This document shows positions 15,792-55,705 of a DNA stretch of 56,447 nt, piece by piece. Source of the stretch: a virus (Duplodnaviria > Caudoviricetes). The stretch's first letter is position 1, and each line of letters starts with the position of its first letter. The translations under genes were made by a program, and so were the position numbers. The stretch spans positions 1 to 56,447 of IMG/VR virus record IMGVR_UViG_3300023181_000034. One strand, given 5' to 3'. The notes under the pieces are model-generated. The model was not told the DNA's origin. It saw only the letters and a list, made by a program, of their open reading frames with translations, and did no database searches.

Positions 15792-15889
15792 TAACGAAGC
15801 GGAATTTCGTTAGGCATATTAAAGAACTTTAGAGGCTATTTGAACATGGTTGCAGGATTCCGCCCTGATCCGGTTTAAGTAGCTTTTTT
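15792..15889 (+). ncRNA. Kissing-loop leader element A
   Basis: TAACGAA-[GCGGAAT]-TTCGTTA hairpin; long terminator-like hairpin with apical CAGG-[ATTCCGC]-CCTG; U tract; TATATTGC at 15777. Confidence 0.7.
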
Positions 15890-15904
15890 AATTGGATAGG
15901 AATT

Positions 15905-16465
15905 ATGAAATTGGAATTACGCCACTTAGCGCCCTACTTGCCTTATAAACTTAAAGGTAGATTTAAATTAAAGGATGTGGTTAACACATATAAAGACGAA
16001 GTAAGAGAAAAAGAGTTGAACACTGATAGTGCAACTTTTTTCTTGCTTTATTGTAAACCGATACTAAGACCTTTATCAGATATGATTATTGATATTACTT
16101 CGAATGGTAAGACAGTAGTTCCAATGATTGAAATACTTAAAATAAGTGAGCCATATTCCGCATTTACTTTGGATGATATAGATCGATTAAGACTAAAAAT
16201 TACACATGAGCATTACAGCACTTCAATTGGTGAAACTGATACTTATACCGCTGAATATGTAATAAAAACTGGAAATATGGGTGATCTTACTCATCATTTT
16301 CAATACTGGGAGCAATTACAAAGATTTTCAAAACGTGACGTTACTAGAGACGTAACGCTTGGTACCGCAAGGCAGCTAGAAATGTTCCAAAAACTATTTG
16401 AATACCATTTTGATGTTTTCGGACTGATTGAACAAGGATTAGCTATTGATATAAACATAATGTAA
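15905..16465 (+). CDS. Hypothetical protein (LAPYLPY family, paralog of 47652-48044)
   Basis: MKLELRHLAPYLPY...KPILRPLSD...HFDVFGLI..GLAIDIN. Confidence 0.7.
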   Translation: MKLELRHLAPYLPYKLKGRFKLKDVVNTYKDEVREKELNTDSATFFLLYCKPILRPLSDMIIDITSNGKTVVPMIEILKISEPYSAFTLDDIDRLRLKITHEHYSTSIGETDTYTAEYVIKTGNMGDLTHHFQYWEQLQRFSKRDVTRDVTLGTARQLEMFQKLFEYHFDVFGLIEQGLAIDINIM

Positions 16466-16475
16466 CAGGAATATT

Positions 16476-16712
16476 ATGGAACCAATAGGTAAATATATTG
16501 AAGGCACTGATATGGAACAATTCGAGCATGTACCTCAGATAAGTGTTTACAATAATAATTATTACAAAGGATTCGATAATGATGTGTTATTCGCTCATTC
16601 TGACGATGACAATACAACCGAATGGTATTTAGTGAATAAAGGAGGCGGGCTTAAATTTATTAAGATTGGTCTATCTTTTTGTGACAAAGAGGAATTATGT
16701 TTAATAGATTAA
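16476..16712 (+). CDS. Hypothetical protein
   Basis: ORF in operon. Confidence 0.6.
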   Translation: MEPIGKYIEGTDMEQFEHVPQISVYNNNYYKGFDNDVLFAHSDDDNTTEWYLVNKGGGLKFIKIGLSFCDKEELCLID

Positions 16713-16778
16713 ATCATACCCCCTATAACGTGCCGCCCTGTAAAGGCAGCATTTTGTGGTACAAAGCAAATAAGAATC

Positions 16779-17180
16779 ATGGGTTACGAAGTAAGAAGTA
16801 GAGATTTAAAAGGCATTTCAAATAGCGGAATGTACGCACAAGAATCATATAAGGACTATAAAAAGTACATTATATCAAAGGATTCCACTATGTACGGCTA
16901 TCTATTAATTAAAACGAAACAAGTAAAACAAGGATTCGTTGTTAAATTTAGATTTCATACACGTGGTATTTGGTATTGGAAACCTGACCTTAGATTCCGT
17001 TGGAAGTGGGAAGGTATAATGATTAACTGGCTATGCTTCTTTATCCATATCGAACCTATTTTCACTGATGTAACCGATAAGGTTGTTGGCGACCATTTAG
17101 GTGAACTAGAGGGTAATTCTTTAGTAGGTAAAACCATAAAACAAAGCAGATTTAATTTCAAAACTAAAATAGTAAACTAA
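16779..17180 (+). CDS. Hypothetical protein
   Basis: ORF in operon. Confidence 0.6.
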   Translation: MGYEVRSRDLKGISNSGMYAQESYKDYKKYIISKDSTMYGYLLIKTKQVKQGFVVKFRFHTRGIWYWKPDLRFRWKWEGIMINWLCFFIHIEPIFTDVTDKVVGDHLGELEGNSLVGKTIKQSRFNFKTKIVN

Positions 17181-17422
17181 TGAATATACCAACCCAACAA
17201 GAAGTAGAAGAAGCCGCAGAACAGGTGGGAACCAATCGTTTCAGTAAGATAAACGGGAACACGCATCGGGACTTAGCTAATGAAGAACATTACTTCTTTG
17301 AAGGACATAAGGAAGGAGCTAATTGGGCGCTTCAACAACTCGAACCGCTTATCACTGAGTTAGGAATGGAAAATGTGAGGTTGAGGAAGGCGTTGGAAGC
17401 ACGGGATGTGGAAGGAAATTAG
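17180..17422 (+). CDS. Hypothetical protein
   Basis: TAATG-coupled; F.EGA.WA motif typical of small phage proteins. Confidence 0.6.
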   Translation: MNIPTQQEVEEAAEQVGTNRFSKINGNTHRDLANEEHYFFEGHKEGANWALQQLEPLITELGMENVRLRKALEARDVEGN

Positions 17423-17434
17423 TATATTTAGGGT

Positions 17435-17617
17435 ATGGAAATGACGAAGATAAAAGGAATAGAAACCAAAGAAGACATAGATAAGCTTTTATCTAAAATA
17501 AAAGATTTGTTAGAACACGGATTGAGTGTTAATAAGAAAATCACCTTATCTATTGATAAACCAAGTCAAGATGTTTTTGACGGTTATAAGCCGACAACAA
17601 TTACTATAACTGTATAA
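17435..17617 (+). CDS. Hypothetical protein
   Basis: Short ORF in operon. Confidence 0.5.
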   Translation: MEMTKIKGIETKEDIDKLLSKIKDLLEHGLSVNKKITLSIDKPSQDVFDGYKPTTITITV

Positions 17618-17671
17618 CGCACTTGCAGCCCTCACTGGGCAAGAGTTGGAATTTAAAGAAAACGCATAGTT

Positions 17672-19977: not shown

Positions 19978-21066
19978 ATGGATTATAAAAAGTATATACA
20001 AGACGGAGGCCAGTTAAATGGCGTAATCCAGAGAACAATCGAAACCATCAATGGTACCGATGCGACTCCAACACAATACTACCATTTGAGAATGCTTAAA
20101 AAAGTGTTATCAATCAGTGGGAATTGGGAAAGTATCACCACTGCATATAGCCAGATAATGGCTCATGTTGTAGCGATGAACTCAGATCTTCCATTAGGTA
20201 AGATGGATAGTTTATCTATTGCAAGCGGTAAAATTCCTAAAATGGGTTTACAGTATGCATTAGACGAGCAGCAACTGACCGACATTGATTACATGATCCA
20301 GACAGGTGTTGTCGGAGCAAAGATTTCAGCTTTATTGTTAGCTCATGCTACTAAATTATTGAAAGCTGTTCCTGAAAGAAACGAAGAGATTTTCCTAAAA
20401 GGATTGTCAACTGGTTTCGCTATCGTTAATGACGATGAAAACACTGGAACTGGTATTCGTTTAGACTACGGCTACCTTTCGGCTAACAAATTCGGTGTAA
20501 CTACTCTATGGAGTAACGTAGCATCTAAACCGTTTGATGATATTCAACGTGTGCTTGATAAAGCGGCATTGGATGGTAATACCATCACAAATGTAATGTT
20601 GGATAGAACTGCATTTAACAACATGGCTAAGACTACTCAAGCTAAAGAGTTGTTTGCATTTAACCAGGGCTTTGTTGGTGCTAACATTCCAACTCCATCA
20701 TTGACTCAATTAAACGGATTCACTTCAGATCGTTACGGATTCACTTTCGAAATTATCACTAAGTCATTCCGTTATGAGAAAAATGGACAACAAACAGTTG
20801 TGACTCCATGGGCTTCAGGTGCAGTTGTATTCTTAACTCAAGAGGAAGTTGGAACATTGACTTACGCTCCATTGGCTGAGTCTAATCCGGCTCATCAAGT
20901 GGCGGGTGTTACTTACAATTTAGTTGACGACTATATGTTGTTCTCTAAATGGGGCCAGAACAAGCCATATCTAGCTGAATTCTCATCTATCCAATCAAGA
21001 GTAGCACCAATCATCAACAACGGTGATCAAATCTACTTATTGGATTCAACAACAGTTCAAGCGTAA
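19978..21066 (+). CDS. Major capsid protein (lambda gpE-like)
   Basis: 362 aa; GKIPKMG, LSTG, DYG...NK..V...W, PFDDI features; position. Confidence 0.85.
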   Translation: MDYKKYIQDGGQLNGVIQRTIETINGTDATPTQYYHLRMLKKVLSISGNWESITTAYSQIMAHVVAMNSDLPLGKMDSLSIASGKIPKMGLQYALDEQQLTDIDYMIQTGVVGAKISALLLAHATKLLKAVPERNEEIFLKGLSTGFAIVNDDENTGTGIRLDYGYLSANKFGVTTLWSNVASKPFDDIQRVLDKAALDGNTITNVMLDRTAFNNMAKTTQAKELFAFNQGFVGANIPTPSLTQLNGFTSDRYGFTFEIITKSFRYEKNGQQTVVTPWASGAVVFLTQEEVGTLTYAPLAESNPAHQVAGVTYNLVDDYMLFSKWGQNKPYLAEFSSIQSRVAPIINNGDQIYLLDSTTVQA

Positions 21067-24601: not shown

Positions 24602-27600
24602 ATGGCGAAAGGCAAAGGCTTACAGTTTCAAACCACAGTAGATATATCTCAATCCAAAGCTAGACTTTTGGAGCTTAAACGACTGATTAGCGAGGTTGGT
24701 GGGATATCAATGTCTGGTGGAAATTCAGCAAACTTCACTGCTGCCCAAGCGGCAATGACACGAACAATGCGAGCTTCATTGTTAGAAACTGAAAGGTTAA
24801 GACAGGAAGGTGTACGTTTAAGGAATGAATATGAATCCGGACGTATTTCAGCACAACAGCTTGCAGCGCAAACACGGGCTTTAAATGAGCAACGTAGACA
24901 AGAAGCGGCAGCACTAAGAGCAGCCCGTACTGTTCAAACAGCAGCTAACGGATCCTATCAAGAAGCGCAAAATAGACTTAGGCAACTAAGTGTACAGATA
25001 CGTAGTGTTGAGGGTGGATTCAGTGGACTTGGCCGTGTTCAGCAAGCTAGGATTGCCGAATACCGTAGGCTTAATGACTCTTTAACTGAATTCGACAGAC
25101 GTATGGGTAACAACCAGCGGAACGTCGGCAACTACTCTAGTGCCATATCAGGTGTTAAAGGTCAATTGACCGGGTTAATTACAACCTACGTTTCAGCAGC
25201 AGCAGCAATTGGTTTAGTAACAAGCGCATTCAGCCAATCCCTCAAATCATCTGCAGTTCGCACTTCTTTAGAATTTACATTCGGTTCAGTTGATTTAGCT
25301 GATGCTAAGCTGGAGCAATTGCTTGACACAGCAAATCGGTTGGGGGTTAATTACAACGCTCTCACAAGTTCGTACAAGTCATTTACAGGTGCAGTAGTAG
25401 CGTCTAATTTTGATTTCCAAGAAGGTGAAAGAATATTCAATGCGGTTGCCGGGGCATCATCTAAACTGAAGTTGTCGTCCGAAGATACCGAAGGTGCGCT
25501 TCGTGCCTTGCAACAAATGATATCTAAGGGAAATGTCCAAGCGGAAGAGCTGCGCGGACAGTTAGGTGAGCGTATTCCAGGCGCATTCAGTATTGCAGCA
25601 CGAGCAATCGGAGTTACCGAAACGCAGTTGAATAAAATGCTTCAGAAAGGGGAGGTATTAGCGGCTGACTTATTACCAAAACTAGCTACTGAATTAGAAA
25701 AAACATTTGGTCTTGAAAGTACTACAGCTGTTGAGGGATTGAATGCTGAAACAGAACGTTTCTTTAACATGTTCTCAGGGGCTGTTGCTGAAAGCTCAAA
25801 TATCAATAAATTCTTTGCAAATGTTGTTGGTGGCTTCAATGAAATATTCGGCACCATATTTAAAATGGTTAACTCTGATACCTGGGGTGAATTTTGGACG
25901 AGGTTAATTGATGGAGCAGGACCAGCAGAAGCAATTAAAAATATCGGCAAATCATACGACCAAGCCAGTAAAGCGATAAAGAATTCATTAAATATTACTG
26001 CCGGAGATAGTAAGAAAGCGTTATTCGCCTTAGAGGAAGTTAGAATAGGGTATGATAAAGCAACTAAGGCATTAGAACAATATAAGGCAGGGGTAAAAGA
26101 TGGCTCATTAAAAGATGGTGGTGACGTTACTATTTCAGCGTTAGAGAATACCGTAAAAGTTGCTGAAGCAAGATTAAAGGCGTTAGAGAAATTGCAGCCT
26201 GCTAAAAAATCGGTAGTGATCGGGGAAACAGCCTCTGAGAAAGCGGCACGATTGAAGGCAGAAAGAGAAGCAGAACGCGAACTAAATGCACAACGCATTT
26301 TACAAAAGAAAATTACCGATTTGAAAAACGAGGCCAACCGAAAAACTCTGACTAAGGATGAGGAAGAAGTTCAGACGGTACGTGATAAGTTTTCAAAGAT
26401 TGCTGAAGAAATACGTTTGTTTAATGCGAATCCAAAAAACAAACTAAAAGTTGACGGTAGCGGATTGGAGCCCGCGATGAAAGCTCAAATCGTATCGATT
26501 GAATATAAACAGGATACCGACAAGCTAAAGGAAAGTTTAGAGGTTCAGAAGGGTTTATATGAACAATATGAGTCGTACCGTACTGAATTAGGTAAAAAAG
26601 CAGCAGATGATCGTTTTGGTGCTGAAATCGATACTACCAAAAAATACGGGGATGTTCTGCAGGCTGAGTATTCAAAGGTGTTAGAGCAAGGATCCAAAAC
26701 AGGATTTACAGGTGCAATGACCGAAAGAATGAAAGTCCTGGAAAAACAGATACGTGAAGAAGGAGTAGTCGAGAATAAAAGGCAGGATGATTTAATGAAG
26801 TCCATTATTTCATTTGATAATGAAGTTAAATCCCTAAACGAAAAGTATGAGCAGGACCGGATTGATGTATTAGCAAAAGGAGGTGGTAAAGATTTAGAAG
26901 TATTAACGAAAAACCATAACCTAAAACTCGCTGCCCTAGGTGATGCTCACTTAAAAGAAATCGATGCATTCAAAGAACTGTATAACGGTATAGACAGACT
27001 CAGTGACCAGAATGCGCGTAAAGTTATTGGTAATGCTGAGGATGCACTGAAAGCGCTTAAGGCTAAAGGTGTGGTCATATCCAAGGAATTGGAAGCCGAA
27101 TTGAAGCGCCTATTTGCTGACTCAAAGTTAGCCATTGCAGATAGATTACCGGAACGCCTCATTGCATTAGCTAATCAAATTAGTAATGTTGCCTCTTCAG
27201 TATCAGGAGTTGACGAAAACTTTGGTAAGGTATTAGGTACCGTAGGAAACATTGTAGGTCAGGTTGGTAATATCAAGAAAGGATTGCTAGACTTTAATAA
27301 ACCTGGAGCGACTGGACTAGAGAAATTAACAGCAGGTCTTGGTATATTTAGTTCTGGGGTAGGCATTTTCTCAGCTGGAATATCTGGCATTAAAACCATA
27401 TCTAACCTGTTTGGAGATCTTAAGGCAGGCGCAGAACAGCAAGCTTATGCGATGGAACTTCAAAACAAACAAAGTGATGCATTGAATAAATCTTTGCAAC
27501 GTCAAATTGAGTTGTTAGATGATGTTTACGGGACAAAGCGAATAGCTGAATATGAAATAGCCAGGAAGAAAGCTGAAGAAAACAGATTACAATATCTATC

Positions 27601-28536: not shown

Positions 28537-28541
28537 AATAA

Positions 28542-44700: not shown

Positions 44701-44729
44701 ACCTGCCATCCTCACATAAGCGGTGTGCT

Positions 44730-45176
44730 CTAGGTGTGCTTTTTTGGATTTTCCAGCTTATAAATCCGTTCTTCCATCTTCTCCATTTTCGCATCCATCA
44801 TGCTCATCACTTTAGAATAATGGTTGATGTTTGCGTGTAATATTTTGATGGTCTTAAGCAAGTGATTTATATCTGTATGCGCTGCCTGTAGCGAGTTCTT
44901 AGCGGTTTTCTTCTCTTCTATATTACTTTGAGGATCGCCTTCGTCTGCAAGCAGCCAATCGCTATTAAGGTTGTAATCCTTAATCATTCTATCAATCATA
45001 TCAAAAGTAATCGGCCTCTTGCCTTTTTCGATAAATGAAATTAGTGCCTGATGAACACCAAGCTTTGTCGCGGCCTCCGCCTGAGTCTTAGCTATAAACT
45101 TCTTTCTGAAGTAACTAAACCGCTTCGCCTTATCTAAACTGTATTTTGCATTTTTATCGAGTCCTGTTATTCTCAT
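44730..45176 (-). CDS. XRE-family HTH regulator with C-terminal coiled coil
   Basis: TQAEAATKLGVHQALISFIEKGKR...LNSDWLL; likely start MRITG. Confidence 0.85.
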   Translation of the reverse strand: MRITGLDKNAKYSLDKAKRFSYFRKKFIAKTQAEAATKLGVHQALISFIEKGKRPITFDMIDRMIKDYNLNSDWLLADEGDPQSNIEEKKTAKNSLQAAHTDINHLLKTIKILHANINHYSKVMSMMDAKMEKMEERIYKLENPKKHT

Positions 45177-45178
45177 TG

Positions 45179-45625
45179 TTATTGTGTGAAAGTAAATCTG
45201 AAGTGTACGCCAGAATACTGTAGTCCAGTAAAATAGCAATCAGTATGGTAAAAATAATTATCTGCTTCTTGTTCGCTCGTAAAGTGAACACCGTCATAAA
45301 TTGCCTGATCTAGTATAAGGTCAATTTGTTTTGATTGCTTGTAACATCTTGCTCCTGATTTATTTAAAATTTTAAAATATATTGCTTGCCATGTTGGCTT
45401 TCCGTTCTCAAATTCCATTCTTGCCGAATAACGGACACTATCTGATTTATCAAATTCATTTACAAACCCCGCCAAGAAACCGCGCTTGGGCCAAAGGCTG
45501 GTGTCGTATAAGTGAGAGTCGTGTAATAAGTGCATCGCAGCGGAGCACACCCGTGCTATCATCGGTAACTTACGTTCCGTGTCAGCTTTTTTCTGCGCTA
45601 ATATTATCTGTCTTGGGGTGGGCAT
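45179..45625 (-). CDS. Hypothetical protein of the immunity operon
   Basis: Between two XRE genes on the same strand. Confidence 0.6.
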   Translation of the reverse strand: MPTPRQIILAQKKADTERKLPMIARVCSAAMHLLHDSHLYDTSLWPKRGFLAGFVNEFDKSDSVRYSARMEFENGKPTWQAIYFKILNKSGARCYKQSKQIDLILDQAIYDGVHFTSEQEADNYFYHTDCYFTGLQYSGVHFRFTFTQ

Positions 45626-45655
45626 ATTAAAACAATAGGGATGATTATTTTAGGC

Positions 45656-46417
45656 TTACAAAGAATTTAAACGTGGCGCTGGTGTCCATCCCTTAATTAA
45701 GTACAACTCTACTACCTGATCGTAATCGATTTCAAAGTCGGGAGCAGTTTTAGATTGGGCTGACTTCAATAGAAAGGGCTTCTTCTTTCCCGGGTAAAGG
45801 TATCGCTCTAAGATGTAATGGTTCATTACAATCACATAGCATTTGCCAGGAACTATCATTTTCTCGTAATCCTCTTTCGGGATCTTCTTAACTCCTATGA
45901 ATGAGTTTTCATCAAAGAAACCTGTCATTGCCGGGTCGCTATGTCTAATCACTAAATCACATCCCTGAAACGCTCCATTTAGAAGCAGGATGTCGGGTAC
46001 TTTTGAGCTGTTAATTAATCCAGCAACACTTCCTGTCGTCAGGTGAACATTGTAGACAGAGGTAACATCGATCTGCTCGTCGATATCCCTGTCCTTGTTA
46101 ATGATCCTTGAGAGTTCTTCCATAATTTTGTTTGGTTTATCATATTGTTTATGCTGCGATTTCGTGGTGGGTAGTGGGCTATTAAGGAATATATCTCCTT
46201 TGCCTTCTGTGATGAATTGTTTACTGATATTGAATTTCTCTTGAAGTTTAATCAAGATCGATAATGTTGGAAGGCGTTTGGTCTCAGCCTCATTTTCTAT
46301 TTTACTAATTGCCGACTTGTCTACATCGATGGCATTTGCCAACTCTACTTGACTTAATTTTAAAGCATTTCTCACTTTAATGAATCTAATTTTCTGAGGG
46401 TTTTCGGCAATTGTCAT
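45656..46417 (-). CDS. CI-like repressor (XRE HTH + S24-like C-terminal domain)
   Basis: LSQVELANAIDVDKSAISKIE; C-terminal S24-like pattern with degenerate catalytic residues; divergent from the early operon. Confidence 0.8.
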   Translation of the reverse strand: MTIAENPQKIRFIKVRNALKLSQVELANAIDVDKSAISKIENEAETKRLPTLSILIKLQEKFNISKQFITEGKGDIFLNSPLPTTKSQHKQYDKPNKIMEELSRIINKDRDIDEQIDVTSVYNVHLTTGSVAGLINSSKVPDILLLNGAFQGCDLVIRHSDPAMTGFFDENSFIGVKKIPKEDYEKMIVPGKCYVIVMNHYILERYLYPGKKKPFLLKSAQSKTAPDFEIDYDQVVELYLIKGWTPAPRLNSL

Positions 46418-46461
46418 TATAATATTAAATTATTCTATCTGTCTATCAAGTAGTTATGTAA

Positions 46462-46519
46462 TAAAAGTAGACAAATGTCACTTATCTATTGTTGGTGGTG
46501 ACAAATGTCTTTATATTTG
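46462..46519. promoter_or_regulatory. Lysis/lysogeny switch: two GACAAATGTC operators and divergent promoters
   Basis: GACAAATGTC at 46470 and 46500; TATATTTG (+) at 46512; TACTTTTA (-) at 46469-46462. Confidence 0.7.
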
Positions 46520-46584
46520 TATTAGATAACAGAAACAAAGGTAATTATAATCATTTAAAACACATATCCCAAATCCCTACTACA

Positions 46585-46824
46585 ATGAACCCTCTAACAA
46601 ACATCTACGGCGTACCAACATTTGACTTTGAGGTTGGTGCCCTCACTACAAGAGAAATTGAAGTGATGCAAAGGACGTTACTTCCCGACAGAAACATTGC
46701 TATTGATCTTCAGATCAGCTATCACACTGTAATGTCGCATTTGAAAAACATTAGAAATAAAACCGGAATGCACAATAAGGAGCATATGGTCTATTTCGCA
46801 TTAAAGAAAGGATTAATCAACTAA
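46585..46824 (+). CDS. LuxR/GerE-type HTH protein
   Basis: LTTREIEV...IA..LQISYHTV.SHLKNIR.K.G.......AL..GL. Confidence 0.85.
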   Translation: MNPLTNIYGVPTFDFEVGALTTREIEVMQRTLLPDRNIAIDLQISYHTVMSHLKNIRNKTGMHNKEHMVYFALKKGLIN

Positions 46825-47036
46825 TGAGTGAACAATTTGCAAAACCCGTAGCCGGGGTATCAATAGCACAGTTGCTAAGAGATATAAAAGAAGGAGAAAT
46901 CAGACCATTTGAAAAGAAGTACACGAATTACCTCAGATCAAAGTCAAGCCAATTAAGGCATGAGTTTCCGGATCGGACTTACAGTGTTACCGAGCTTGAA
47001 AGTAAAACGCAAGTATCCTGGAAGTCAAAAGACTGA
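46824..47036 (+). CDS. Hypothetical small DNA-binding-like protein
   Basis: TAATG-coupled ORF. Confidence 0.6.
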   Translation: MSEQFAKPVAGVSIAQLLRDIKEGEIRPFEKKYTNYLRSKSSQLRHEFPDRTYSVTELESKTQVSWKSKD

Positions 47037-47233
47037 ATCAATTAATAAGCCTCTGCCCGTCGGCAAACAAAACAGAGGCCATTTAACCACACCAAAACAA
47101 GTACAGTTATGTCAAAGTTAGAAAAATCATTAGTAATCCACAGGATCATCAGTTCTAAGAAAGCTGGATTGGTTAGTGCTGAACAGTTCAAGTTGAATGC
47201 GCTTCGTTTGCGCACGGATAGGAGGGCAGCGTC

Positions 47234-47500
47234 ATGTTAACTAACACCACCTGCAACGATATCAACATTGAGGCCGTTGAACAGTACATCTGCAGGGTAC
47301 AATCATTAACTGCACTATTACGTAAGTCTCAAGACCGCGCCCGTGAGCAGGCATGCTTACCATACTTTGGAATATTCGGTACGGATGCTGAAATGCACCA
47401 GGTAGTTGAAAGGCAGAATGCAGTCACTAGTAGGATCGCTGGTTACCTACTAGCTACGATCAGAAAGGAGTTGGGAAACGTGGGAGGGAATGGAATATGA
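47234..47500 (+). CDS. Hypothetical protein
   Basis: ORF in early operon. Confidence 0.6.
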   Translation: MLTNTTCNDINIEAVEQYICRVQSLTALLRKSQDRAREQACLPYFGIFGTDAEMHQVVERQNAVTSRIAGYLLATIRKELGNVGGNGI

Positions 47501-47651
47501 TTGTTAAAGAAAAATGCCAAATTTTTAAATTAGGAATTAGCCACTTGGGTAACAAAGCTAATAAGAAATGCAAAAGCATTGCGATGCATGAATTAAATGG
47601 TAAAAAAATGTGCGTTAACTGCTACACTAACGCATTAGGAGGGTCTTCGAA

Positions 47652-48044
47652 ATGAAATTAGAATTAAAACACCTAGCACCATACTTACCTTATGGTTTAG
47701 TATTTAACTTGACAAGATCACACAATCCGTTTACATGCATTGGTTTGACTGTTCATGAAGACGGAATAATGGCTCATCGTAAAGGCGGATCATCAAACGT
47801 ATCACTTGATAAGTATTACAAGCCAGTATTGAGACCAATGTCGGATTTAACAAACGAAATGGCTCATAAAAGCGGATACAAGAATGCTAACGCTTTAAAA
47901 TTGATGGTGATATCTCATAAAATCCCATATATAGGTATGGATAATTTATTCACTCACCACTTCGATGTATTCGGGCTAATTCACGCAGGATTGGCTATTG
48001 ACATCAACACCCAACCATTATCATTAGGAGGGCTGTTATCATGA
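47652..48044 (+). CDS. Hypothetical protein (LAPYLPY family)
   Basis: Paralog of 15905-16465. Confidence 0.7.
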   Translation: MKLELKHLAPYLPYGLVFNLTRSHNPFTCIGLTVHEDGIMAHRKGGSSNVSLDKYYKPVLRPMSDLTNEMAHKSGYKNANALKLMVISHKIPYIGMDNLFTHHFDVFGLIHAGLAIDINTQPLSLGGLLS

Positions 48045-48337
48045 ACGGAGTAACGATTATAGAAACTGACAAGCTTAATGCAATAATAGCAAACATGGAG
48101 CGAATGGTAGCCTACGTACGTGATGCTGCTCAGGAAACTAAGCTAGGTAAGAAAGCCTACTTATCCCTTTCAGAAACCGCAGAATTTACGGGGTACTCAG
48201 TAAAATGGGTTCGTAACAATAAAGATGAAATCGGTTGCAGCAAAGTTGGAGGCGATTACCGCTTCAAACGCACAGATGTGATTGAATTCATGGAACAGAA
48301 TTATTTCAAAGCACAAAACAGAAGGAGAGCATCATGA
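48041..48337 (+). CDS. Excisionase-like HTH protein
   Basis: YLSLSETAEFTGYS...KVGG.YRF.R.DV.EF. Confidence 0.75.
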   Translation: MNGVTIIETDKLNAIIANMERMVAYVRDAAQETKLGKKAYLSLSETAEFTGYSVKWVRNNKDEIGCSKVGGDYRFKRTDVIEFMEQNYFKAQNRRRAS

Positions 48338-48645
48338 AAAGTATTGCTGATTACCTAGCTATGATAGCTAAAGAGACTGAGGTTCTATTTACGGAACTAT
48401 ACGCAAGCGTGGGACGCATTGCTAAGCGGATGTTGGCTAAGTGCAAGAAGGAAACGTTTCCAACCGTCAGGGAGCCAAGTAGCGCCAAACCACAAGGCAT
48501 GCGAAGCACATATTACCCGCCAAACTACGGTGATATCCATTTCTACAGACAACATCAGATGTTAAATAGGGTACTGGAAGAGATAGCGATGGAAAAGGTG
48601 CACTACGAGGCACTAGAAATATTATCAGGTAAAGAAACTAATTGA
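48334..48645 (+). CDS. Hypothetical protein
   Basis: ATGA-coupled ORF. Confidence 0.6.
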   Translation: MKSIADYLAMIAKETEVLFTELYASVGRIAKRMLAKCKKETFPTVREPSSAKPQGMRSTYYPPNYGDIHFYRQHQMLNRVLEEIAMEKVHYEALEILSGKETN

Positions 48646-48691
48646 TTACACACACCCTGACCGAAAGCGAGGGGGTAAAAATATAAAGATT

Positions 48692-49726
48692 ATGATGCAG
48701 TTGAAAAGAGCTTCACGGAAGCAAGTCAAACTTAGATTAAACATATCAGCGCCAGCAGGAGCGGGTAAAACGTATTCAGCCTTATTAATGGCTAAGGGGT
48801 TAGTTAGCGATTGGAGTAAAATAGCGGTAGTTGATACTGAAAACGGATCTTCGTCCCTTTATTCAAACTTAGGGGAATTCAATGTTATTGATATGGAAGC
48901 GCCATTTACACCTGAAAAGTATACGCAAGCAATAAAGGCGTGTGTTGATGCTGGAATGGAATGTATTATCCTTGATAGTACGACTCATGAATGGGTTTGT
49001 TTACTTGAAGAAAATGAAATGCTTGCACAAGCTAAATTCAAAGGCAACACTTGGAGTGCATGGTCTGTAACCACACCTAGACACGATAAATTCTTGCAAG
49101 CAGTATTGCAATGCCCGGCACACGTAATCACTTGTACCCGTTCCAAAATGGATACTGTGCTAGTTGAAAACAACGGACGTAAAGAGGTTAAGAAAGTAGG
49201 ATTGAAAGACGAACAGCGCAGTGGCTGGGAATATGAGCTTACTGTATCATTAAATATTGACAGAGATACCCATTGCGCAATACCGAGTAAAGACAGGACT
49301 AACCTATTCGAAGGTAAAAATCCTTTTGTGATCACTGAGAAAACAGGTGAAATGATAAAGGAATGGTGTGAGTCGGGTGTTGCGGATAAAGCAGGTGATG
49401 TTAAGCTACGTGAAGCCACTACTGTAACTGAATTAGCAAATGTGTTCAAAGGGTTGACACGTGAAGAACAGGAACGCTTTGTTGCTGTAAAGGATGAAAT
49501 GAAAGGCAAATTAGCGCCTGAATTGACTCCTGTTGCCGCGCCTGCCCCCCTTCCTGCTATGCCGGATGATAGGTATAAGAAATTAATCACATCTATTAAG
49601 AAAGTAGATGCTGATATCACGGGGATCCTTAAGTCAGCACGTGAGCAGTTCACCTTCACCCCTGAACAAGAAACAGAGTTTACAAACATCATTGCTACAG
49701 CAGCATCTAAAAAACAAGCGGCGTAA
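48692..49726 (+). CDS. AAA ATPase, Sak4-like recombination protein
   Basis: APAGAGKTYSAL; VDTENGS; ILDSTTHEW; EYE; KDRT. Confidence 0.85.
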   Translation: MMQLKRASRKQVKLRLNISAPAGAGKTYSALLMAKGLVSDWSKIAVVDTENGSSSLYSNLGEFNVIDMEAPFTPEKYTQAIKACVDAGMECIILDSTTHEWVCLLEENEMLAQAKFKGNTWSAWSVTTPRHDKFLQAVLQCPAHVITCTRSKMDTVLVENNGRKEVKKVGLKDEQRSGWEYELTVSLNIDRDTHCAIPSKDRTNLFEGKNPFVITEKTGEMIKEWCESGVADKAGDVKLREATTVTELANVFKGLTREEQERFVAVKDEMKGKLAPELTPVAAPAPLPAMPDDRYKKLITSIKKVDADITGILKSAREQFTFTPEQETEFTNIIATAASKKQAA

Positions 49727-49914
49727 TGGAAAAGAAAACCGTAGATGCGATTTTAGCTAGGCTAAGATCAAACGCTAAATGCTGCCCCAACTCAACTGCA
49801 ATCGATAGAGCTAGAAAAGGAGCTTATGTTGATTCAATCGTAATCATTGAGCAAATGGTTAGGCAAAGTGAATCGGATGCTTTAACCAAAGCAAAAGGAG
49901 GTAATCATGAATAA
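49726..49914 (+). CDS. Hypothetical protein
   Basis: TAATG-coupled ORF. Confidence 0.55.
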   Translation: MEKKTVDAILARLRSNAKCCPNSTAIDRARKGAYVDSIVIIEQMVRQSESDALTKAKGGNHE

Positions 49915-50353
49915 CAAACTATTAACCCTAAAAGCGGAGGACTTGGCTGTAATGTATGCAGCCTCGTTCTCTAAAAAGGATGCAGAAGCAGCCGGACAAA
50001 ATCTAGCACACGATGTATTTGAAAAAGGAGAGGTAGATCCTTTACATGTGCTGTCCAACCTATCACGTCTTAAGTGCGTAATTGATAGCGCAGAAAAGGT
50101 GTTCCGTTCTCGATTGGTCCTGAATACTGCTGATACCTGGAATGGAGTTTCTTTCACTCCAAAGAATGGATCTGAGAAACTTCAATATTCAGAAGATCAT
50201 GAAGTAGCTGAATTGGAGGAAAAGCTAAAGGAGCGCAAAGAGTTGGTTAAGCTCGCTACCAAATCAAAGGACGTGATCTTTGATAGTACAGGGGCAGAAG
50301 TTCCAAAGGTGTCAACGGTTTATGATAAGTCGTCAATTGTAATTAGCTTTTAG
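49907..50353 (+). CDS. Hypothetical protein (recombination module)
   Basis: GEVDPL...D.TG.EVP motif; next to the AAA gene. Confidence 0.7.
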   Translation: MNNKLLTLKAEDLAVMYAASFSKKDAEAAGQNLAHDVFEKGEVDPLHVLSNLSRLKCVIDSAEKVFRSRLVLNTADTWNGVSFTPKNGSEKLQYSEDHEVAELEEKLKERKELVKLATKSKDVIFDSTGAEVPKVSTVYDKSSIVISF

Positions 50354-50521
50354 TTATGAGCTCAATCACCAAAGCAAACCGAAAGCTAGATGAGATGCTT
50401 TTCGATTTTGAGGAATTACTAAATGTTCAAATGCTTGAATTGCAATATGGACCTAACTATGTTAGTAATATCCTTGATGATATAATCGCTGAATTGTCAA
50501 CAGATAAAATAATTGGACGCT

Positions 50522-50776
50522 ATGAAAAATACTAAACCCAAACCCCTAGCAACCCTTCCAATCCATATCAGACAAGTGCCACGTACCAACACATTCGTGA
50601 ACTCACATACAGGCGAACGCTATTCCTACACTAAGGCTTTGAGTATTGCCCAAGCGCATGCTCCGCGCATCCAACCCGATCACTCTGCCATCCTTGAGAA
50701 ACGTTGGGATTTGAGAATGGATACTCACGAAATTAATGAGGATGGGTTGTACATAAGGACCGTTCAGGGAATTTAA
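50522..50776 (+). CDS. Hypothetical protein
   Basis: ATG at 50522. Confidence 0.5.
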   Translation: MKNTKPKPLATLPIHIRQVPRTNTFVNSHTGERYSYTKALSIAQAHAPRIQPDHSAILEKRWDLRMDTHEINEDGLYIRTVQGI

Positions 50777-50778
50777 TT

Positions 50779-50816
50779 ATTACATATTGTTATATAGGTA
50801 ATAATGTGTATATTGC
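50779..50816 (+). promoter_or_regulatory. Class-I promoter
   Basis: ATTACATATTGTTAT ... TATATTGC. Confidence 0.75.
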
Positions 50817-50822
50817 ATGACG

Positions 50823-50906
50823 GTAGTGTGGTAGCTACATAAAAACATTCATTCCATTGGGAGAAGCGACTACCACAATAGCTGATCCCGATGGAATTAT
50901 TTATTT
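50823..50906 (+). ncRNA. Kissing-loop leader element D
   Basis: GTAG-[TGTGGTAG]-CTAC; ATTCCATTGGGA...AGC-GA[CTACCACA]ATA-GCT...TCCCGATGGAAT. Confidence 0.7.
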
Positions 50907-50915
50907 AAAGAGAAT

Positions 50916-51674
50916 ATGAAAAAACATGAGTTGCTGAAATATGCGTACGACAATTACCCTAATGGGACGAAATTTAATGCCCTTAGGACATCTGATGTTA
51001 AAGTGTCAGACGGAGATCTTAATTTGATTAAAGAGTTTGGCGATATTATCATCCTTTCAGATAGTAATATACTATATGAAGCTGGATGCTGGGCTAAAGT
51101 TGTAAAACCCTCAATACTAGATGGTAAAGCATTAATAGTTGTCGAAAACTATAGGCAATTTACTTTACTTAATACCTATTTAGGGTTAAATTTAAGTACC
51201 CCTAGCACATATCCAGTTTATTATGATGCTGACAAAAAATATGGCTCTTATTCTTATACTACAAAACAAAAGTTAATCTCATTCGCGGGCTTCGCTAAAG
51301 AAATAGGCATCAAAGTGCCTAAATTTATAATTAAGTCAGAAGATGGAGTTGATTTGTATGAGGGGGATGATCTTTACACTGCCAAATTATGCAACGGAGA
51401 ATGGGTTTATGATGACTATCACGGACAACCATATAATATTAGTAAAAATTCACTTGTTGTAAGGGAACAGGATGAATACAAGGCTTTCTCCACCCGTGAA
51501 GCAGCCGAAAAATGGATTGCAGAAATGAATAAGCCTAAAGATATTGAATTAGATATTAACGCTTATGGTTCAGCTTTAATCAAACCTAGCGAAGTAGTAT
51601 TCAATGGTTACGTCAATAGAATAACAGGGGCGCAAATTGAGTCCATCTACAAAGCCTACCAATCCCTCCAATAA
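50916..51674 (+). CDS. Hypothetical protein
   Basis: SEDGVDLYEGD...FSTREAAEKWI motif. Confidence 0.65.
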   Translation: MKKHELLKYAYDNYPNGTKFNALRTSDVKVSDGDLNLIKEFGDIIILSDSNILYEAGCWAKVVKPSILDGKALIVVENYRQFTLLNTYLGLNLSTPSTYPVYYDADKKYGSYSYTTKQKLISFAGFAKEIGIKVPKFIIKSEDGVDLYEGDDLYTAKLCNGEWVYDDYHGQPYNISKNSLVVREQDEYKAFSTREAAEKWIAEMNKPKDIELDINAYGSALIKPSEVVFNGYVNRITGAQIESIYKAYQSLQ

Positions 51675-51758
51675 CCCCCTACAGTGATTAACAACCGCCC
51701 AATGTTGGGTGAAGCGGGTCACGCGTATGGCGAATAGCATTAAACAAAAACAAAACAT

Positions 51759-52067
51759 ATGTCACAACTTATCAATGGCAGTTTATGCCTCACAGACTTA
51801 ATTGCTAAAGCAAAAGAGCAACATTCATCATTCAGTAAAGCAGCGAATGGTAAGATCTACGCCAACATAACTATGTGGGTTAACGATGAGCCGGATACCT
51901 ATGGAAACACTGTCAGCTTGCAATTAAACAGCACACAAGAGAAGCGAGAAGCAGAAGGTAAAGTTTACGTTGGAAATGGTAAACCTTCAAAGAAAAAAGA
52001 ACCAGAAGCCGTTGCTGCATCTGACTTGGCTACGGTTGAGGACGATTTAAACTCGCTACCATTTTAA
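51759..52067 (+). CDS. Single-stranded DNA-binding protein-like
   Basis: OB-like N-terminus; acidic tail ending LPF. Confidence 0.7.
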   Translation: MSQLINGSLCLTDLIAKAKEQHSSFSKAANGKIYANITMWVNDEPDTYGNTVSLQLNSTQEKREAEGKVYVGNGKPSKKKEPEAVAASDLATVEDDLNSLPF

Positions 52068-52261
52068 GAGGATAATCACCCCTATCAACGCCCTGTATGG
52101 AAACATACGGGGTTTGTGGGTACTCGATAACAGTAAAGACCGATAACAGGTATTAACAACTAAACAGAAGGAGGGCACCATGAACAAGTAACCGAATCAA
52201 AAGAACTTACTAAAGACCTGTACAGAGATGTACGGGTTTTTGAGGTACAAGAACATTCATT

Positions 52262-53032
52262 ATGAGTTTAATTAAAGAAGGAATCACTAAAGATTTATTG
52301 GCTTCCATTAACATGGACAAGCAACATAGTCCTGTACAATTAATGCCAGACGAAACACCTGTAAAGCTTATTAAGTGTGGTACGGGTTATTGGGTAATGC
52401 TTGAATTTGGCGAGTATCTGAAAGACGAAAAAAATAGACTAATTGTCATTTCAGATAAGGATGCTAAGATTGGCAGAGCACGATATATGATTAATTACGC
52501 TACAGAGATCGAGCAGGAAAGGCTTGATAAATTAGAAGAGGCTATTAATTCAGAAATGGATATTCTTAAAGCTAAAGTAGACGAAAAGCTAAATTCTGAT
52601 ATTAAAAAAAGCCGTGAAATACTAGTATTAGCTGGCAAGATTGAATTAGAGGGTATAGAAAAAATACTTACTGATGCTGTTAGGCAAGCTAACGGTAGTG
52701 ATCCATATAATTTAAACTCAAATGATAGTTACAGATACGAACAACGTGCTAAAATAGCAAAAGAATTAGCTACACCAGAATTTGAAGATTCATATAAATT
52801 ATTGCTACGTCTAAAAGAAAACACGCCTTACAATAGCTTATATCAACAATATTTTCAAGAGGGATTACCTTTAGTTGGTTCATTTCAAACCAATAGCCCG
52901 TCTGACCTAGAGGCACTGAAAAAGTTGTTTAGTCGTTCAGCTCTCGATCAAACTTCTGATGACATGCAGAATAAAGATCATTTGTATATGGTGGCTAAAG
53001 TTAATGTAGAAAAACGACTTGCACGATCATGA
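52262..53032 (+). CDS. Hypothetical protein
   Basis: 256-aa ORF. Confidence 0.65.
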   Translation: MSLIKEGITKDLLASINMDKQHSPVQLMPDETPVKLIKCGTGYWVMLEFGEYLKDEKNRLIVISDKDAKIGRARYMINYATEIEQERLDKLEEAINSEMDILKAKVDEKLNSDIKKSREILVLAGKIELEGIEKILTDAVRQANGSDPYNLNSNDSYRYEQRAKIAKELATPEFEDSYKLLLRLKENTPYNSLYQQYFQEGLPLVGSFQTNSPSDLEALKKLFSRSALDQTSDDMQNKDHLYMVAKVNVEKRLARS

Positions 53033-53325
53033 ACCCTACTCAACTCTTAACCCCCAACGCCATAACCTACTCAACCATAACGGTGCATACGCCCTCCCCG
53101 TATAAGAAGATGCCACCCATAGCGCACACAACAACTTGCGTAATCAGCGTAGGCGAAGATTGGGATGGATGGTTGCGTATGACACGCCCACTGCATGCAA
53201 TGGTACTGGCGCATTTGGGACTGGACAGGGATGCGGAGGTAGTATCGGTGAGCGTGAAGGTGGATTTGGGATGGAGGAATGGGTATAGGCCCGGGGTGGC
53301 GAAAGAATTAAATAAAGAGATATGA
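53029..53325 (+). CDS. Hypothetical protein
   Basis: ATGA-coupled at both ends. Confidence 0.55.
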   Translation: MNPTQLLTPNAITYSTITVHTPSPYKKMPPIAHTTTCVISVGEDWDGWLRMTRPLHAMVLAHLGLDRDAEVVSVSVKVDLGWRNGYRPGVAKELNKEI

Positions 53326-54044
53326 AACACGGATCATTGTTCTCAGGTATTGGCGGTTTTGATCTGGCAGCAGACTTAATGGGATGGCAAAATATATTTC
53401 ATTGTGAAAAAGAAGAATATCAAAGAAGTGTTTTAAAAAAACATTTTCCAAAAAGCAAAAGCTATGAAGACATTAAAAATTTCAGCGCAACCGAATACCG
53501 AAATAGGATCAACGTCTTATCCGGAGGATTCCCCTGCCAAGACATTTCTGCAGCCAATTTTAAATCAGTTGGAATTGTGGGGAAAAGATCAGGATTATGG
53601 TCGGAATATGCCCGTGTTATACACGAGGTCAGACCTGATTACGTCGTTATCGAGAATAGCCCAAACCTCCTTAAAAAGGGATTTGAAACAGTCTTATTTG
53701 ACCTTTCCGAAATCGGGTACAATGCAGAATGGGAATGTTTCACTGCGGAAGCGTTTGGATTTCCTCACAAAAGAGAGCGGGTTTACGTTATTGCCTACCC
53801 CAATGGCGTCAGACAACCGGGATCGAGGGACATACTTGGTAACATCAGCTATAACCAGGAGAGTAGAGATTGGCAAACAAATAGGGTTATCAATGCTATT
53901 CAACAAAAAACCCTGCCCCCATTGTGTGAGTCAAATAATGGGTTTCCCACCCAATTGCCTCTTACAGGATTAGGTAATGCCATTGTCCCTGCTATAGCTC
54001 ATAGCATATTTAAAGCCATTGAAAAATACGAAAATACTATATGA
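53322..54044 (+). CDS. DNA (cytosine-5) methyltransferase, large (alpha) polypeptide
   Basis: Motif I LFSGIGG; IV GGFPCQD; VI ENS; VIII HKRER; X GLGNAIVP; only 240 aa. Confidence 0.92.
   Translation: MKHGSLFSGIGGFDLAADLMGWQNIFHCEKEEYQRSVLKKHFPKSKSYEDIKNFSATEYRNRINVLSGGFPCQDISAANFKSVGIVGKRSGLWSEYARVIHEVRPDYVVIENSPNLLKKGFETVLFDLSEIGYNAEWECFTAEAFGFPHKRERVYVIAYPNGVRQPGSRDILGNISYNQESRDWQTNRVINAIQQKTLPPLCESNNGFPTQLPLTGLGNAIVPAIAHSIFKAIEKYENTI
53464..53973 (+). CDS. Nested alternative-frame C5-MTase small (beta) polypeptide
   Basis: 169-aa ORF fully inside the MTase gene; LLPTPMASD and P...SQIMGFP motif-IX-like segment. Confidence 0.7.
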   Translation: MKTLKISAQPNTEIGSTSYPEDSPAKTFLQPILNQLELWGKDQDYGRNMPVLYTRSDLITSLSRIAQTSLKRDLKQSYLTFPKSGTMQNGNVSLRKRLDFLTKESGFTLLPTPMASDNRDRGTYLVTSAITRRVEIGKQIGLSMLFNKKPCPHCVSQIMGFPPNCLLQD

Positions 54045-54050
54045 TTACTA

Positions 54051-54119
54051 GCTATGTTAGGTTAACAGGAAAACCGACTGATATTTCAGTAGACATGCGT
54101 TCGAGGCGGATCCGTAGCT
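54051..54119 (+). tRNA. tRNA-like gene/pseudo-tRNA lacking a canonical anticodon loop
   Basis: GCTATG/CGTAGC acceptor; TA; D arm GGTT-AACAGGAA-AACC; ACTGA-TATT-TCAGT; AGAC; ATGCG-TTCGAGG-CGGAT. Confidence 0.55.
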
Positions 54120-54242
54120 CAATTAATAGTTAATGAATAACACAGACCCCCTAACACCCTTCCTCCTTTGGGCTGAAGGTCTTGATTGGGATTACAGCGT
54201 GCCAGTGGAAGTGGAAGTAAGTAAACAATTAGAATTAGAATT

Positions 54243-54476
54243 ATGAGAAACGCATTATTTAACACATTAGATGTAATGGCCGATATTGATTGGCATTACT
54301 TCGTATTAGGAAACATAGCTGAGTCAAAGGATATGACAGCTAAAGAAATCCGTAGGCATTCATTCAATCACCTACGTGCAATTATCAAACGTAAAGCATT
54401 GTTAGGCTACGACACGACACCAGATCAAAAGGCATACGATGATCTTAAAGCAGTAAAGGGAGGGGCGGCATCATGA
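54243..54476 (+). CDS. Hypothetical protein
   Basis: ORF in operon. Confidence 0.6.
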   Translation: MRNALFNTLDVMADIDWHYFVLGNIAESKDMTAKEIRRHSFNHLRAIIKRKALLGYDTTPDQKAYDDLKAVKGGAAS

Positions 54477-54943
54477 ATGAATTAAAAGCAGCCGATCTAC
54501 GGATTGGGAATTTGGTGAGCGTGCCAAGGGAAGATCAGTCACCATTTAGGGTTGACTTAATAGAATATGCATCTGCCACCTATTGTAAGGTTGGAATGAA
54601 TGTACATAAGTTCGATACACCATTTGGTGTTATTGATGGCCACCCTCTTACTTGGGAGTTGCCAGATTTGCGGAGCATTCCATTAACCTCGGAATGGCTT
54701 GAGAAACTAGGCTTCACTACACTATCAGGCACTTACTCAAAATCAACTGAATTGGATATGCATATCATGTTAATCCAATCAACAGATGGGTTTTACCCTC
54801 AATTATTACAAGATGCAGAAATGTCGTGTGATGAAACTCAGTGCGTATCATTACCACGTGCTGAGACAGTCCACGCTTTACAGAACCTTTTTTACATAAT
54901 CAGCGGAGGCCAAGAACTAACGATAGGAGAAACATCGAAATGA
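54473..54943 (+). CDS. Hypothetical protein (paralog of 41998-42366)
   Basis: DLRIGN...IPLT.EWL.KLGF...VHALQNL.Y. Confidence 0.7.
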   Translation: MNELKAADLRIGNLVSVPREDQSPFRVDLIEYASATYCKVGMNVHKFDTPFGVIDGHPLTWELPDLRSIPLTSEWLEKLGFTTLSGTYSKSTELDMHIMLIQSTDGFYPQLLQDAEMSCDETQCVSLPRAETVHALQNLFYIISGGQELTIGETSK

Positions 54944-55524
54944 TACAATACACACCAAAATACCTAAAACAGAAAGCATTGCGTGAAGCACGTAAAGCAG
55001 CAGGTTTACCAGCAATGACGGAAGAAACTAAAGCCAAAAACGCAGCTAGGTACCAAAAGAAAAAATCAGAAGGCCTGATATCATTCAAAGGTAGGCCAAA
55101 AACAGAGGCGCAGAAGAATTGGAAGCCATCTGGAGAGAAAGGGTTGGCGTTAGCAAGGATAAGAAAGGATAAGGCCAACCAGAAGGACAGAGAAAAACGG
55201 AGGTTAGCTAGGGAGTCAGGTGTACCGGATAAAAGAAAAAAAGAGAATAGGGTTAAGGAACATTACAAAACGGCATTGGCCGCACCAAAACCAGCACCCA
55301 AAGAAACCCGCCTACCTCAATCACCAAAGGTCACGCTGCTACGTAAGGAGAGAAAGCCTCGTGCGCAAGATCCCGTGTGCAAGATCCCGACCCAAGACCC
55401 AACCACCACTAAGACCTGGATTCCTGAATTAAAGATGCATGTATTCTTGCGACCTGGGCAGTCGGTAGCAGATGTGGTCGATAAGTACACACAAAGACCG
55501 GGTGCGAAGATTGGTAAATGGTGA
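54940..55524 (+). CDS. Highly basic hypothetical protein
   Basis: K/R-rich, ATGA-coupled. Confidence 0.6.
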   Translation: MIQYTPKYLKQKALREARKAAGLPAMTEETKAKNAARYQKKKSEGLISFKGRPKTEAQKNWKPSGEKGLALARIRKDKANQKDREKRRLARESGVPDKRKKENRVKEHYKTALAAPKPAPKETRLPQSPKVTLLRKERKPRAQDPVCKIPTQDPTTTKTWIPELKMHVFLRPGQSVADVVDKYTQRPGAKIGKW

Positions 55525-55544
55525 TTTTTTTTTTGCCTAAAATT

Positions 55545-55583
55545 ATAACATATTGTTATTGTTGTTATAAAATTGTATATTTA
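55545..55583 (+). promoter_or_regulatory. Class-I promoter
   Basis: ATAACATATTGTTAT ... TATATTTA. Confidence 0.75.
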
Positions 55584-55589
55584 CACTTC

Positions 55590-55705
55590 AAATGGGTTGA
55601 CAGCCTAAAGACATTTAAACATTATTCCCCTGTGAACTATCTAAGCGCCTTTAATCGGTGCACATAAGCTGTCAACTTTAAGTTTATGGGGGAGTAATGT
55701 TGTTT
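55590..55705 (+). ncRNA. Kissing-loop leader element E
   Basis: GTTGACAGC (55596-55604) in the first hairpin; GCTGTCAAC (55668-55676) in a branch of the long AACATTATTCCCCTGTGAACT/AGTTTATGGGGGAGTAATGTT hairpin. Confidence 0.7.

Follow-up and report, generated by a model that had tools for sequence, protein, structure and literature searches.

Pseudoknotted leader RNAs at the operon starts of a temperate tailed phage are probably a new kind of transcription control element

We analysed the viral record IMGVR_UViG_3300023181_000034 (Duplodnaviria; Caudoviricetes) over a stretch of 56,447 nucleotides (nt), referred to here as the window, which is estimated to be 98% complete and represents a temperate tailed phage. 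Five elements on its plus strand, designated A to E, share one design: just 3' of a promoter of Bacteroidota type lie a short 5' hairpin (hairpin 1), an A-rich linker and a long second hairpin (hairpin 2). A preliminary description of this DNA had recognised a single architecture in the five, and reading and folding bore this out, the fold energies lying below those of dinucleotide shuffles (z of −2.2 to −4.1). The loop of hairpin 1 has an exact complement in hairpin 2 in all five, of 7 nt in A, B and C, 8 nt in D and 9 nt in E. Together with their relatives in other phages, the elements are a structured RNA family undescribed in Rfam and in the literature searched, and probably a new kind of transcription control element.

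Element A (15777–15889) has its −7 box, TATATTGC, at 15777–15784 and hairpin 1 at 15791–15813, with the loop GCGGAAU (15799–15805) complementary to AUUCCGC at 15857–15863; the linker (15814–15830) contains AAAGAACUUU, and hairpin 2 (15831–15887) ends in a U6 tract reaching 15889, ahead of a start codon at 15905. Element B (28498–28636) begins with a promoter palindrome (28498–28512) and the −7 box TATATTTG (28529–28536), followed by hairpin 1 (28542–28566), in which GUGAGAU (28551–28557) matches AUCUCAC (28607–28613), the linker AAAAACAUU (28572–28580), hairpin 2 (28584–28635) with a U6 tract, and a start codon at 28650. The corresponding parts of element C (38996–39141) are a promoter palindrome at 38996–39010, hairpin 1 at 39041–39066, the complementary sequences GAUCUGA (39049–39055) and UCAGAUC (39111–39117), the linker AAAGACAUU at 39072–39080 and hairpin 2 at 39084–39141 with a U5 tract; the start codon at 39157 is that of an HNH endonuclease gene. 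In element D (50779–50906), the promoter (50779–50816) is followed by hairpin 1 (50823–50838), whose loop UGUGGUAG (50827–50834) is the complement of CUACCACA (50870–50877), by the linker AAAAACAUU (50841–50849) and by hairpin 2 (50851–50897), with a start codon at 50916. Element E (55545–55705) consists of a promoter (55545–55582), a weak hairpin 1 (55593–55607) with the loop GUUGACAGC (55596–55604), the linker AAAGACAUU (55607–55615) and a long hairpin 2 (55618–55701) that includes an inner hairpin; the partner of its loop, GCUGUCAAC, is at 55668–55676, and the likely start codon, of a DUF3223 protein, at 55727.

The copies differ in detail. The stem of hairpin 1 has only 4 base pairs in D and 3 in E, and the pairing 7-mer of B and C is part of a loop of 14–15 nt. 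The linker reads AAAnACAUU in B–E, with the above variant in A, and U tracts are clear in A–C and weak in D and E, both as first described. It had also been claimed that the first loop is always the exact reverse complement of an apical loop; the complementarity is exact in five of five, but the partner strand in E lies in the 3'-side internal loop behind the inner hairpin. When all sequence 3' of hairpin 1 was shuffled (100,000 shuffles per element), a complement of the observed length was reached 269 times for A, 2062 for B, 3121 for C, 111 for D and 20 for E, the product of the five estimates being about 4e-13. Non-cognate loop pairs share at most 4 nt, against 7–9 nt for cognate pairs.

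The promoters of A–E fit the consensus of Bacteroidota, which we take to be TTTG at −33 and TAnnTTTG at −7. A −7 box had been noted earlier at each element and is present, but the conserved sequence extends well beyond it: eight promoters (at 4986, 7321, 9651, 10343, 28498, 38996, 50779 and 55545) have in common a consensus of about 40 nt (ATAACAwwTTGTTAT, 4 nt, GTwATAA, 4–6 nt, TATATTkn), of which the promoter of A is a diverged version. A folded leader follows four of the eight (B–E). The remaining four, on the plus strand between 4986 and 10357, form the comparison class without a folded element; their leaders are C/A-rich and unfolded (5015–5072, 7355–7380, 9690–9759 and 10385–10489; e.g. 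CACCAACCACCCAAGAGC) and may be a second leader type. Hairpin 1 begins 6–10 nt 3' of the −7 box in A–E, as it does at two loci of other phages (L130 and L007, see below), a position that coincides with the predicted 5' end of the RNA.

Each promoter begins a few bases from an upstream stop codon, and together they divide the genome into about ten units, the longer of which are headed by A–E; the distance to the next promoter or terminator is about 12.6 kilobases (kb) for A, 10.4 for B, 3.6 for C, 4.7 for D and 5.8 for E. Judged by coordinates, the head-tail genes as far as the tape measure appear to be headed by A, the distal genes of the tail by B and those for replication by E. The preliminary description assigned the elements to accessory, moron and replication operons; with these positions, the set is not mainly accessory or moron.

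The palindrome ATAACAwwTTGTTAT covers the −33 region of the eight near-identical promoters and, as far as can be told from the sequence, looks like a common operator. A candidate for its binder is a small early protein of LuxR/GerE helix-turn-helix (HTH) type (46489–46824; Pfam E 1.7e-8), encoded divergently from the repressor gene. Scanning viral contigs with the promoter consensus gave 53 stretches, nearly all single and chance-like, and no relative that we fetched has this promoter.

Since close phage relatives are scarce, related loci (numbered with the prefix L) were fetched through the primase and then through the replication-organiser protein; a search with the major capsid protein returned one viral locus and no genome locus, and megablast of 20 kb of the window against named phages gave no match. 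Elements outside the window were identified by eye and with scripts, 3' of a TAnnTTTG box and just 5' of the first replication gene (L066; L130 with the near-identical L161–L163 and L169; L145) or before another gene (L007–L009). The gene that follows A has relatives at four loci, where its homologue is without a leader; L007–L009 have the leader before the next gene. Altogether 30 of 80 replication-organiser loci carry an element, comprising 15 distinct sequences, 11 loci with identical copies, and L170, L173, L220 and L223, the least certain member among the 30 being L177. The outside phages add 19 different pairing sequences. L174 has two elements with different codes, which repeats the window pattern of several copies per genome; in an L130-like phage (G001, 29 kb, 93% complete) there is only one such leader.

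Similarity to the window copies extends to the unpaired parts. The relatives fall into groups according to linker motifs that they share with the window, namely AAAAACAUUUA, as in B–E, UAAGAACUUAUU, as in A, and also AAGAUAUU; L130 and L145 are without the linker motif. The internal loops of hairpin 2 are likewise alike (UGGAUrGGA-loop-CCyUGAA in relatives, GAGUA-GGA-loop-UCC-GAAA in B). A GC-rich outer stem followed by U5–U10 is found in A, B, C, L007, L066, L130, L145 and all 15 distinct sequences listed, for which the U run is not independent evidence, having been one of the filters behind the listing. The loop-loop kiss that had been ascribed to every copy did not prove universal: the 5' partner of group Ib and of L220 is found in a single-stranded linker and not in the loop of a hairpin. 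What holds generally is therefore that a pseudoknot forms with the tip of the terminator hairpin; the loop-loop kiss is its common special case.

Covariance models support homology between the window copies and elements of other phages. A model built from A, B and C only (R1) matched, in 82 kb, L175 (26.3 bits, E 0.0068), L194 (E 0.026) and the second L174 site (E 0.043), and did not lift L007, L066, L130 or L145 above noise. Rebuilt with these three sites (R2), the model was run over 608 kb and gave 15 matches at E ≤ 1, every one on the strand of the gene; they include D (21.9 bits) and new members. Under strict filters, R2 matched none of 151 genomes sampled from the class to which one Bacteroidia genome belongs (E ≤ 0.001); with only 28 candidates scored in each, this result is uninformative.

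Covariation between the loops, first claimed from the five different exact pairs of the window, was seen again as two-sided changes among orthologues. In a clean alignment of four orthologues carrying three codes (A10), 132 of 132 cells pair and variation is concentrated in the paired columns. Both sides change in 9 of 33 pairs (the pseudoknot contributing 4 of its 7 pairs, the tip stem 3 of 6 and the outer stem 2 of 15), a level reached by none of 500 shuffles, which argues that the structure is under selection; it should be noted that the four sequences were found by a complementarity search, so that the count is formal and not independent. With the partners slid by 1–3 columns, 28–42% of cells paired and at most two changes were two-sided. 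MAFFT alignments of groups Ia and II had their loops out of register, and column counts refer to group Ib only. Conservation is, moreover, higher within the elements than in the flanking sequence and goes beyond pairing: L130 and L161 differ at 1 of 97 nt in the element, compared with 22 of 299 upstream and 22 of 300 downstream, and L007 and L009 at none of 88 nt, compared with 96 of 300 upstream.

Generic scans were far less discriminating. Hand-written descriptors returned mostly noise (24 matches against a shuffle mean of 13.35; 1290 against 1366), as did further descriptors on real and reversed sequence (139 versus 156; 106 versus 93). A kissing scan of minimum-free-energy loops in 388 intergenic gaps gave 8 matches versus 4 and missed A, E and L066, and a test for complements to terminator interiors gave 41 of 363 against controls of 22, 20, 12 and 51, only about a two-fold enrichment; the extra matches inspected were coding-region noise. 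The noise of the loose descriptors is what speaks for chance complementarity, or for an inverted repeat at the DNA level with no role in RNA. We consider this extremely unlikely given the shuffle product, the 19 additional codes, all different, that other phages have at this position and the compensatory changes in A10; a common DNA-binding protein is excluded because the sequence differs in each copy. Elements A–E and their kin are real, statistically secure and spread well beyond the window genome.

The preliminary description had not recognised them as a named family, and we found none: the whole window searched against Rfam 15, at the gathering score and at E ≤ 10, gave no match overlapping A–E, and the five excerpts and the outside members searched in small spaces (E ≤ 5 and E ≤ 1) gave no match overlapping an element. 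The models searched presumably include C4 antisense RNA, the riboswitch classes, EAR/epsC, pistol, hammerhead and twister. Among the literature search results that were inspected, no paper described a pseudoknot-leader motif of this kind.

Among the other genes of the window are those for a primase-helicase (1449–3221), the large terminase (5906–7318), the portal (8202–9647), the major head protein (19978–21066) and the tape measure (24602–28501), and, on the minus strand, an integrase (43314–44576) and a CI-like repressor (45656–46417). The portal is distantly related (25–30% identity) to those of phages of Porphyromonas, Bacteroides and Riemerella, and the primase has relatives in metagenome-assembled genomes of Bacteroidia, Flavobacteriales and other Bacteroidota; as these relatives belong to Bacteroidota or their phages, the host is placed in this phylum. 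The gene directly 3' of A (15905–16465) and its paralogue at 47652–48044 belong to the uncharacterised phage family phrog_10841, and no relatives were found for the gene after B. Four free-standing homing-endonuclease-like genes (three HNH, one GIY-YIG) lie at 357–809, 7381–8133, 10911–11339 and 39157–39783, several of them directly 3' of a conserved promoter or between conserved phage genes.

The phage also encodes a transfer-messenger RNA (tmRNA; 10490–10894, 81 bits, with a tag peptide predicted by ARAGORN), transcribed from the conserved promoter at 10343 and preceded by a small terminator-like hairpin. At its 3' end (10837), three models of ribozymes like that of hepatitis delta virus (HDV) coincide, with sub-threshold scores of 24, 20.9 and 17.6 bits and E 0.0077 when 151 nt were searched; the position recalls the theta ribozymes, described as lying 3' of phage tRNAs (PMC10879173). 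The HNH gene at 10911–11339 comes after the tmRNA and is followed by a GC-rich intergenic region (11340–11516) with several hairpins and no Rfam match.

Several further sites resemble the elements in part. A 670-nt non-coding stretch before the 3' end of the integrase gene (42644–43313) holds a possible sixth, atypical copy (42857–43018, plus strand), for which no promoter was seen and which we do not count as a member. It has a 3-base-pair hairpin (UAU/AUA) with the loop GAUGAAGAG, whose 9-nt complement, about 110–120 nt downstream, is the loop of a strong terminator (42983–43008; GCCUAC-UCUUCAUCGG-GUAGGC, then U6). This pairing could be a sixth copy or a separate structured RNA, and the attachment site is probably within the same stretch. 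The site 52170–52241 (16.5 bits with R1), just 5' of the gene at 52262 and with no promoter consensus, was rejected as a member, since it lacks a pseudoknot; its linker-like AAAGAACUU and short terminator hairpin may be those of a copy that has decayed or of a plain attenuator. The 8-mers AUUCCGCC and GGCGGAAU, the pair of the element A loops, recur at about 37440 and 37530 inside the open reading frame 36998–37561. Outside the window, L147 (852–1035) and L148 (8886–9089) have a different leader-like element, in which a long-range helix closes about 60 nt before a U7 tract and carries a compensating G-C to A-U change between the two.

What is observed, then, is a conserved pseudoknotted leader at operon starts, with a short conserved single-stranded linker and, in most members, an outer helix with the signature of a terminator. 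We favour, with a probability of roughly 0.45, a promoter-proximal leader that acts in cis, ends in an intrinsic terminator formed by its closing helix and serves as a checkpoint for attenuation or antitermination; termination at hairpin 2, and any control of it, is a prediction from sequence features. The transcript would start a few bases 3' of the promoter, with the element as its 5' leader. Its upstream segment, usually the loop of the 5'-terminal hairpin, pairs over 7–9 nt with the tip loop of the long hairpin 2, to which it is joined by the A-rich linker (AARAnnUU), and the outer helix of hairpin 2, with the U tract of most copies, would be an intrinsic terminator 15–40 nt 5' of the first start codon. 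The pseudoknot may pre-organise and lock this large hairpin, and a factor recognising the conserved linker and the fold would set the fraction of polymerases that enter the operon; this factor could be a protein of the phage or of the host, a small ligand or the polymerase. Precedents from mobile elements are put (PMC9378689) and canT, EAR and conAn2 (PMC11658703), all of them leader RNAs that act in cis on termination.

The interval between element and start codon has no space for a second promoter, which favours a leader. It also bears on another possible explanation, that the elements are independent genes for small RNAs of about 90–110 nt, released at hairpin 2 and acting in trans through the linker or the loops. 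Each element does have its own promoter and a terminator-like end, the conserved linker could be a seed, and P1 c4 and P4 CI are phage RNAs cut from leaders. However, with no promoter of their own in the gap of 15–40 nt, the downstream genes depend on read-through; each loop is occupied by the other; and no consistent target of the linker was seen by eye near start codons. We therefore regard free small RNAs as very unlikely.

Several observations weigh against a terminator checkpoint. Elements D and E are without a good U tract, so that termination cannot be the sole conserved property; the attenuator reading of the preliminary description is reasonable for copies with a GC-rich stem and a U tract. 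A simple terminator scan of 38000–56447 flagged none of C, D and E, because their hairpins are long and interrupted and have loops over the limit of the scan. No competing antiterminator helix was found by eye in the leaders, which therefore are not classical two-state attenuators, and no leader peptide common to the copies was seen. Among 40 window proteins compared with PHROGs, 20 of them also with Pfam, no antiterminator protein was recognised, only the LuxR/GerE-type HTH protein. Finally, B is surrounded by tail genes, and strong termination without regulation would do harm there.

The fold that D and E retain without a good U tract speaks for a 5' stabiliser and translation insulator, in which a locked 5' hairpin would shield a long operon mRNA from decay dependent on the 5' end and would leave unpaired the A/U-rich sequence ahead of the start codon on which ribosomes land, a sequence that would include the U tract. 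This would matter in Bacteroidota, where ribosome binding does not depend on Shine-Dalgarno pairing. The predicted 5' end coincides with hairpin 1, the stretch from hairpin 2 to the AUG is A/U-rich in all five copies, the AUG of L130 comes immediately after a U8 run, and A–E head the longer transcription units, all of which would suit such a role. Nevertheless, a GC-rich stem with U5–U10, retained in most members, is the standard signal of an intrinsic terminator, a plain stabiliser requires neither a conserved linker nor a pseudoknot, and the conservation of the whole element in the L130 group exceeds the needs of the stems alone. On balance we hold this explanation to be rather unlikely.

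The length of the operons can also be read in terms of a processive antiterminator resembling put, where the leader would bind its own polymerase and make it resistant to terminators across the operon, hairpin 2 being the first terminator bypassed. The elements are promoter-proximal and head multi-kilobase operons, as putL lies just 3' of PL (PMC9378689); they occur in several copies per genome with little common sequence except a short single-stranded motif; and they have a compact tertiary fold. Mobile elements use such RNAs, as the accounts of canT, EAR and conAn2 indicate (PMC11658703). Yet put is described as two stem-loops without loop-loop pairing, and neither 'pseudoknot' nor 'kissing' occurs in PMC9378689. 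Internal terminators in 38000–56447, moreover, are not above chance (15 versus 12.7 expected), and a processive antiterminator appears to us distinctly unlikely.

A more far-reaching possibility, which we consider unlikely, is that the leaders are sensors of a new class with control over most phage transcription, a master switch resembling a riboswitch or put and specific to phages of Bacteroidota. The pseudoknot domain within the terminator would be an aptamer-like module, with a pocket formed by the linker and the internal loop; in response to a host signal, to a phage protein or to the polymerase, all major operons would be opened at once, and the loop codes would be free to evolve. As for these codes, the proposal that individual loops prevent cross-talk between elements is not supported: codes differ as freely between orthologues in different phages, where, for example, four near-identical elements carry three of them. 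Their diversity is explained by compensatory drift that is neutral or by selection against repeats in one genome, and designed orthogonality is not required.

To our knowledge, almost nothing has been reported on gene control in phages of Bacteroidota, whose hosts have unusual promoters and ribosome-binding rules. The elements add an RNA family that is supported by covariation and has no Rfam entry, with at most five copies per genome, at operon heads, and members in dozens of uncultured phage contigs. If they gate transcription as we propose in the terminator checkpoint, they would be a new example of operon timing in phages without known antiterminator proteins, and a compact natural part with a specificity-free scaffold that tolerates many loops, of interest to builders of RNA regulators for gut Bacteroidota. 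If they are only stabilisers, they would still help to annotate where operons begin in these phages.

Among known systems, put of HK022 is close in layout, as A–E also have two hairpins just 3' of a promoter. Like put, EAR, conAn2 and canT, they are promoter-proximal folded leaders with a role in cis that belong to mobile elements, occur more than once in a genome and head long operons. The put RNA, however, is described as a V-shaped pair of stem-loops of about 70 nt, with no loop-loop pairing and no built-in terminator (PMC9378689), and the cis-acting antiterminator RNAs described from phages and conjugative elements have other folds than A–E (PMC9378689, PMC11658703). It is by description, not by sequence, that put and A–E are set apart, and antitermination by A–E is putative.

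In attenuators of the pT181 and pIP501 type, loop kissing is likewise coupled to a leader terminator 5' of replication genes, and the loops set specificity; there, the kiss is between the leader and a countertranscript and switches the fold, whereas both partners in A–E are in one leader. Engineered orthogonal versions of such attenuators are described (PMC3753616). On a brief look, no minus-strand −7 box was seen after B; no systematic scan for antisense promoters was made. In the c4 RNAs of P1 and P7 and the CI RNA of P4, too, loops pair with sites of their own transcript, and compensating changes distinguish heteroimmune phages. These RNAs are processed and either act close to a ribosome-binding site or bring about distal termination; each phage has a single immunity system of this kind, whereas A–E are five copies acting in cis on lytic operons, with no Rfam match at E ≤ 10 (the C4 model presumably included).

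The preQ1, ZTP and fluoride riboswitches resemble A–E in having a compact pseudoknotted domain upstream of, or merged with, the intrinsic terminator of a leader. They differ in that A–E have no match to an Rfam riboswitch, conserve only about 8 linker nt and small internal-loop motifs, and stand before structural, replication and endonuclease genes, a context that points to no ligand. The ColE1 RNA I/RNA II pair with Rop is intermolecular and concerned with plasmid copy number, and no Rop-like protein was identified in the window phage; its likeness to A–E lies in fully paired loop-loop helices of 7 nt, in which the sequence is variable and the shape is what is recognised.

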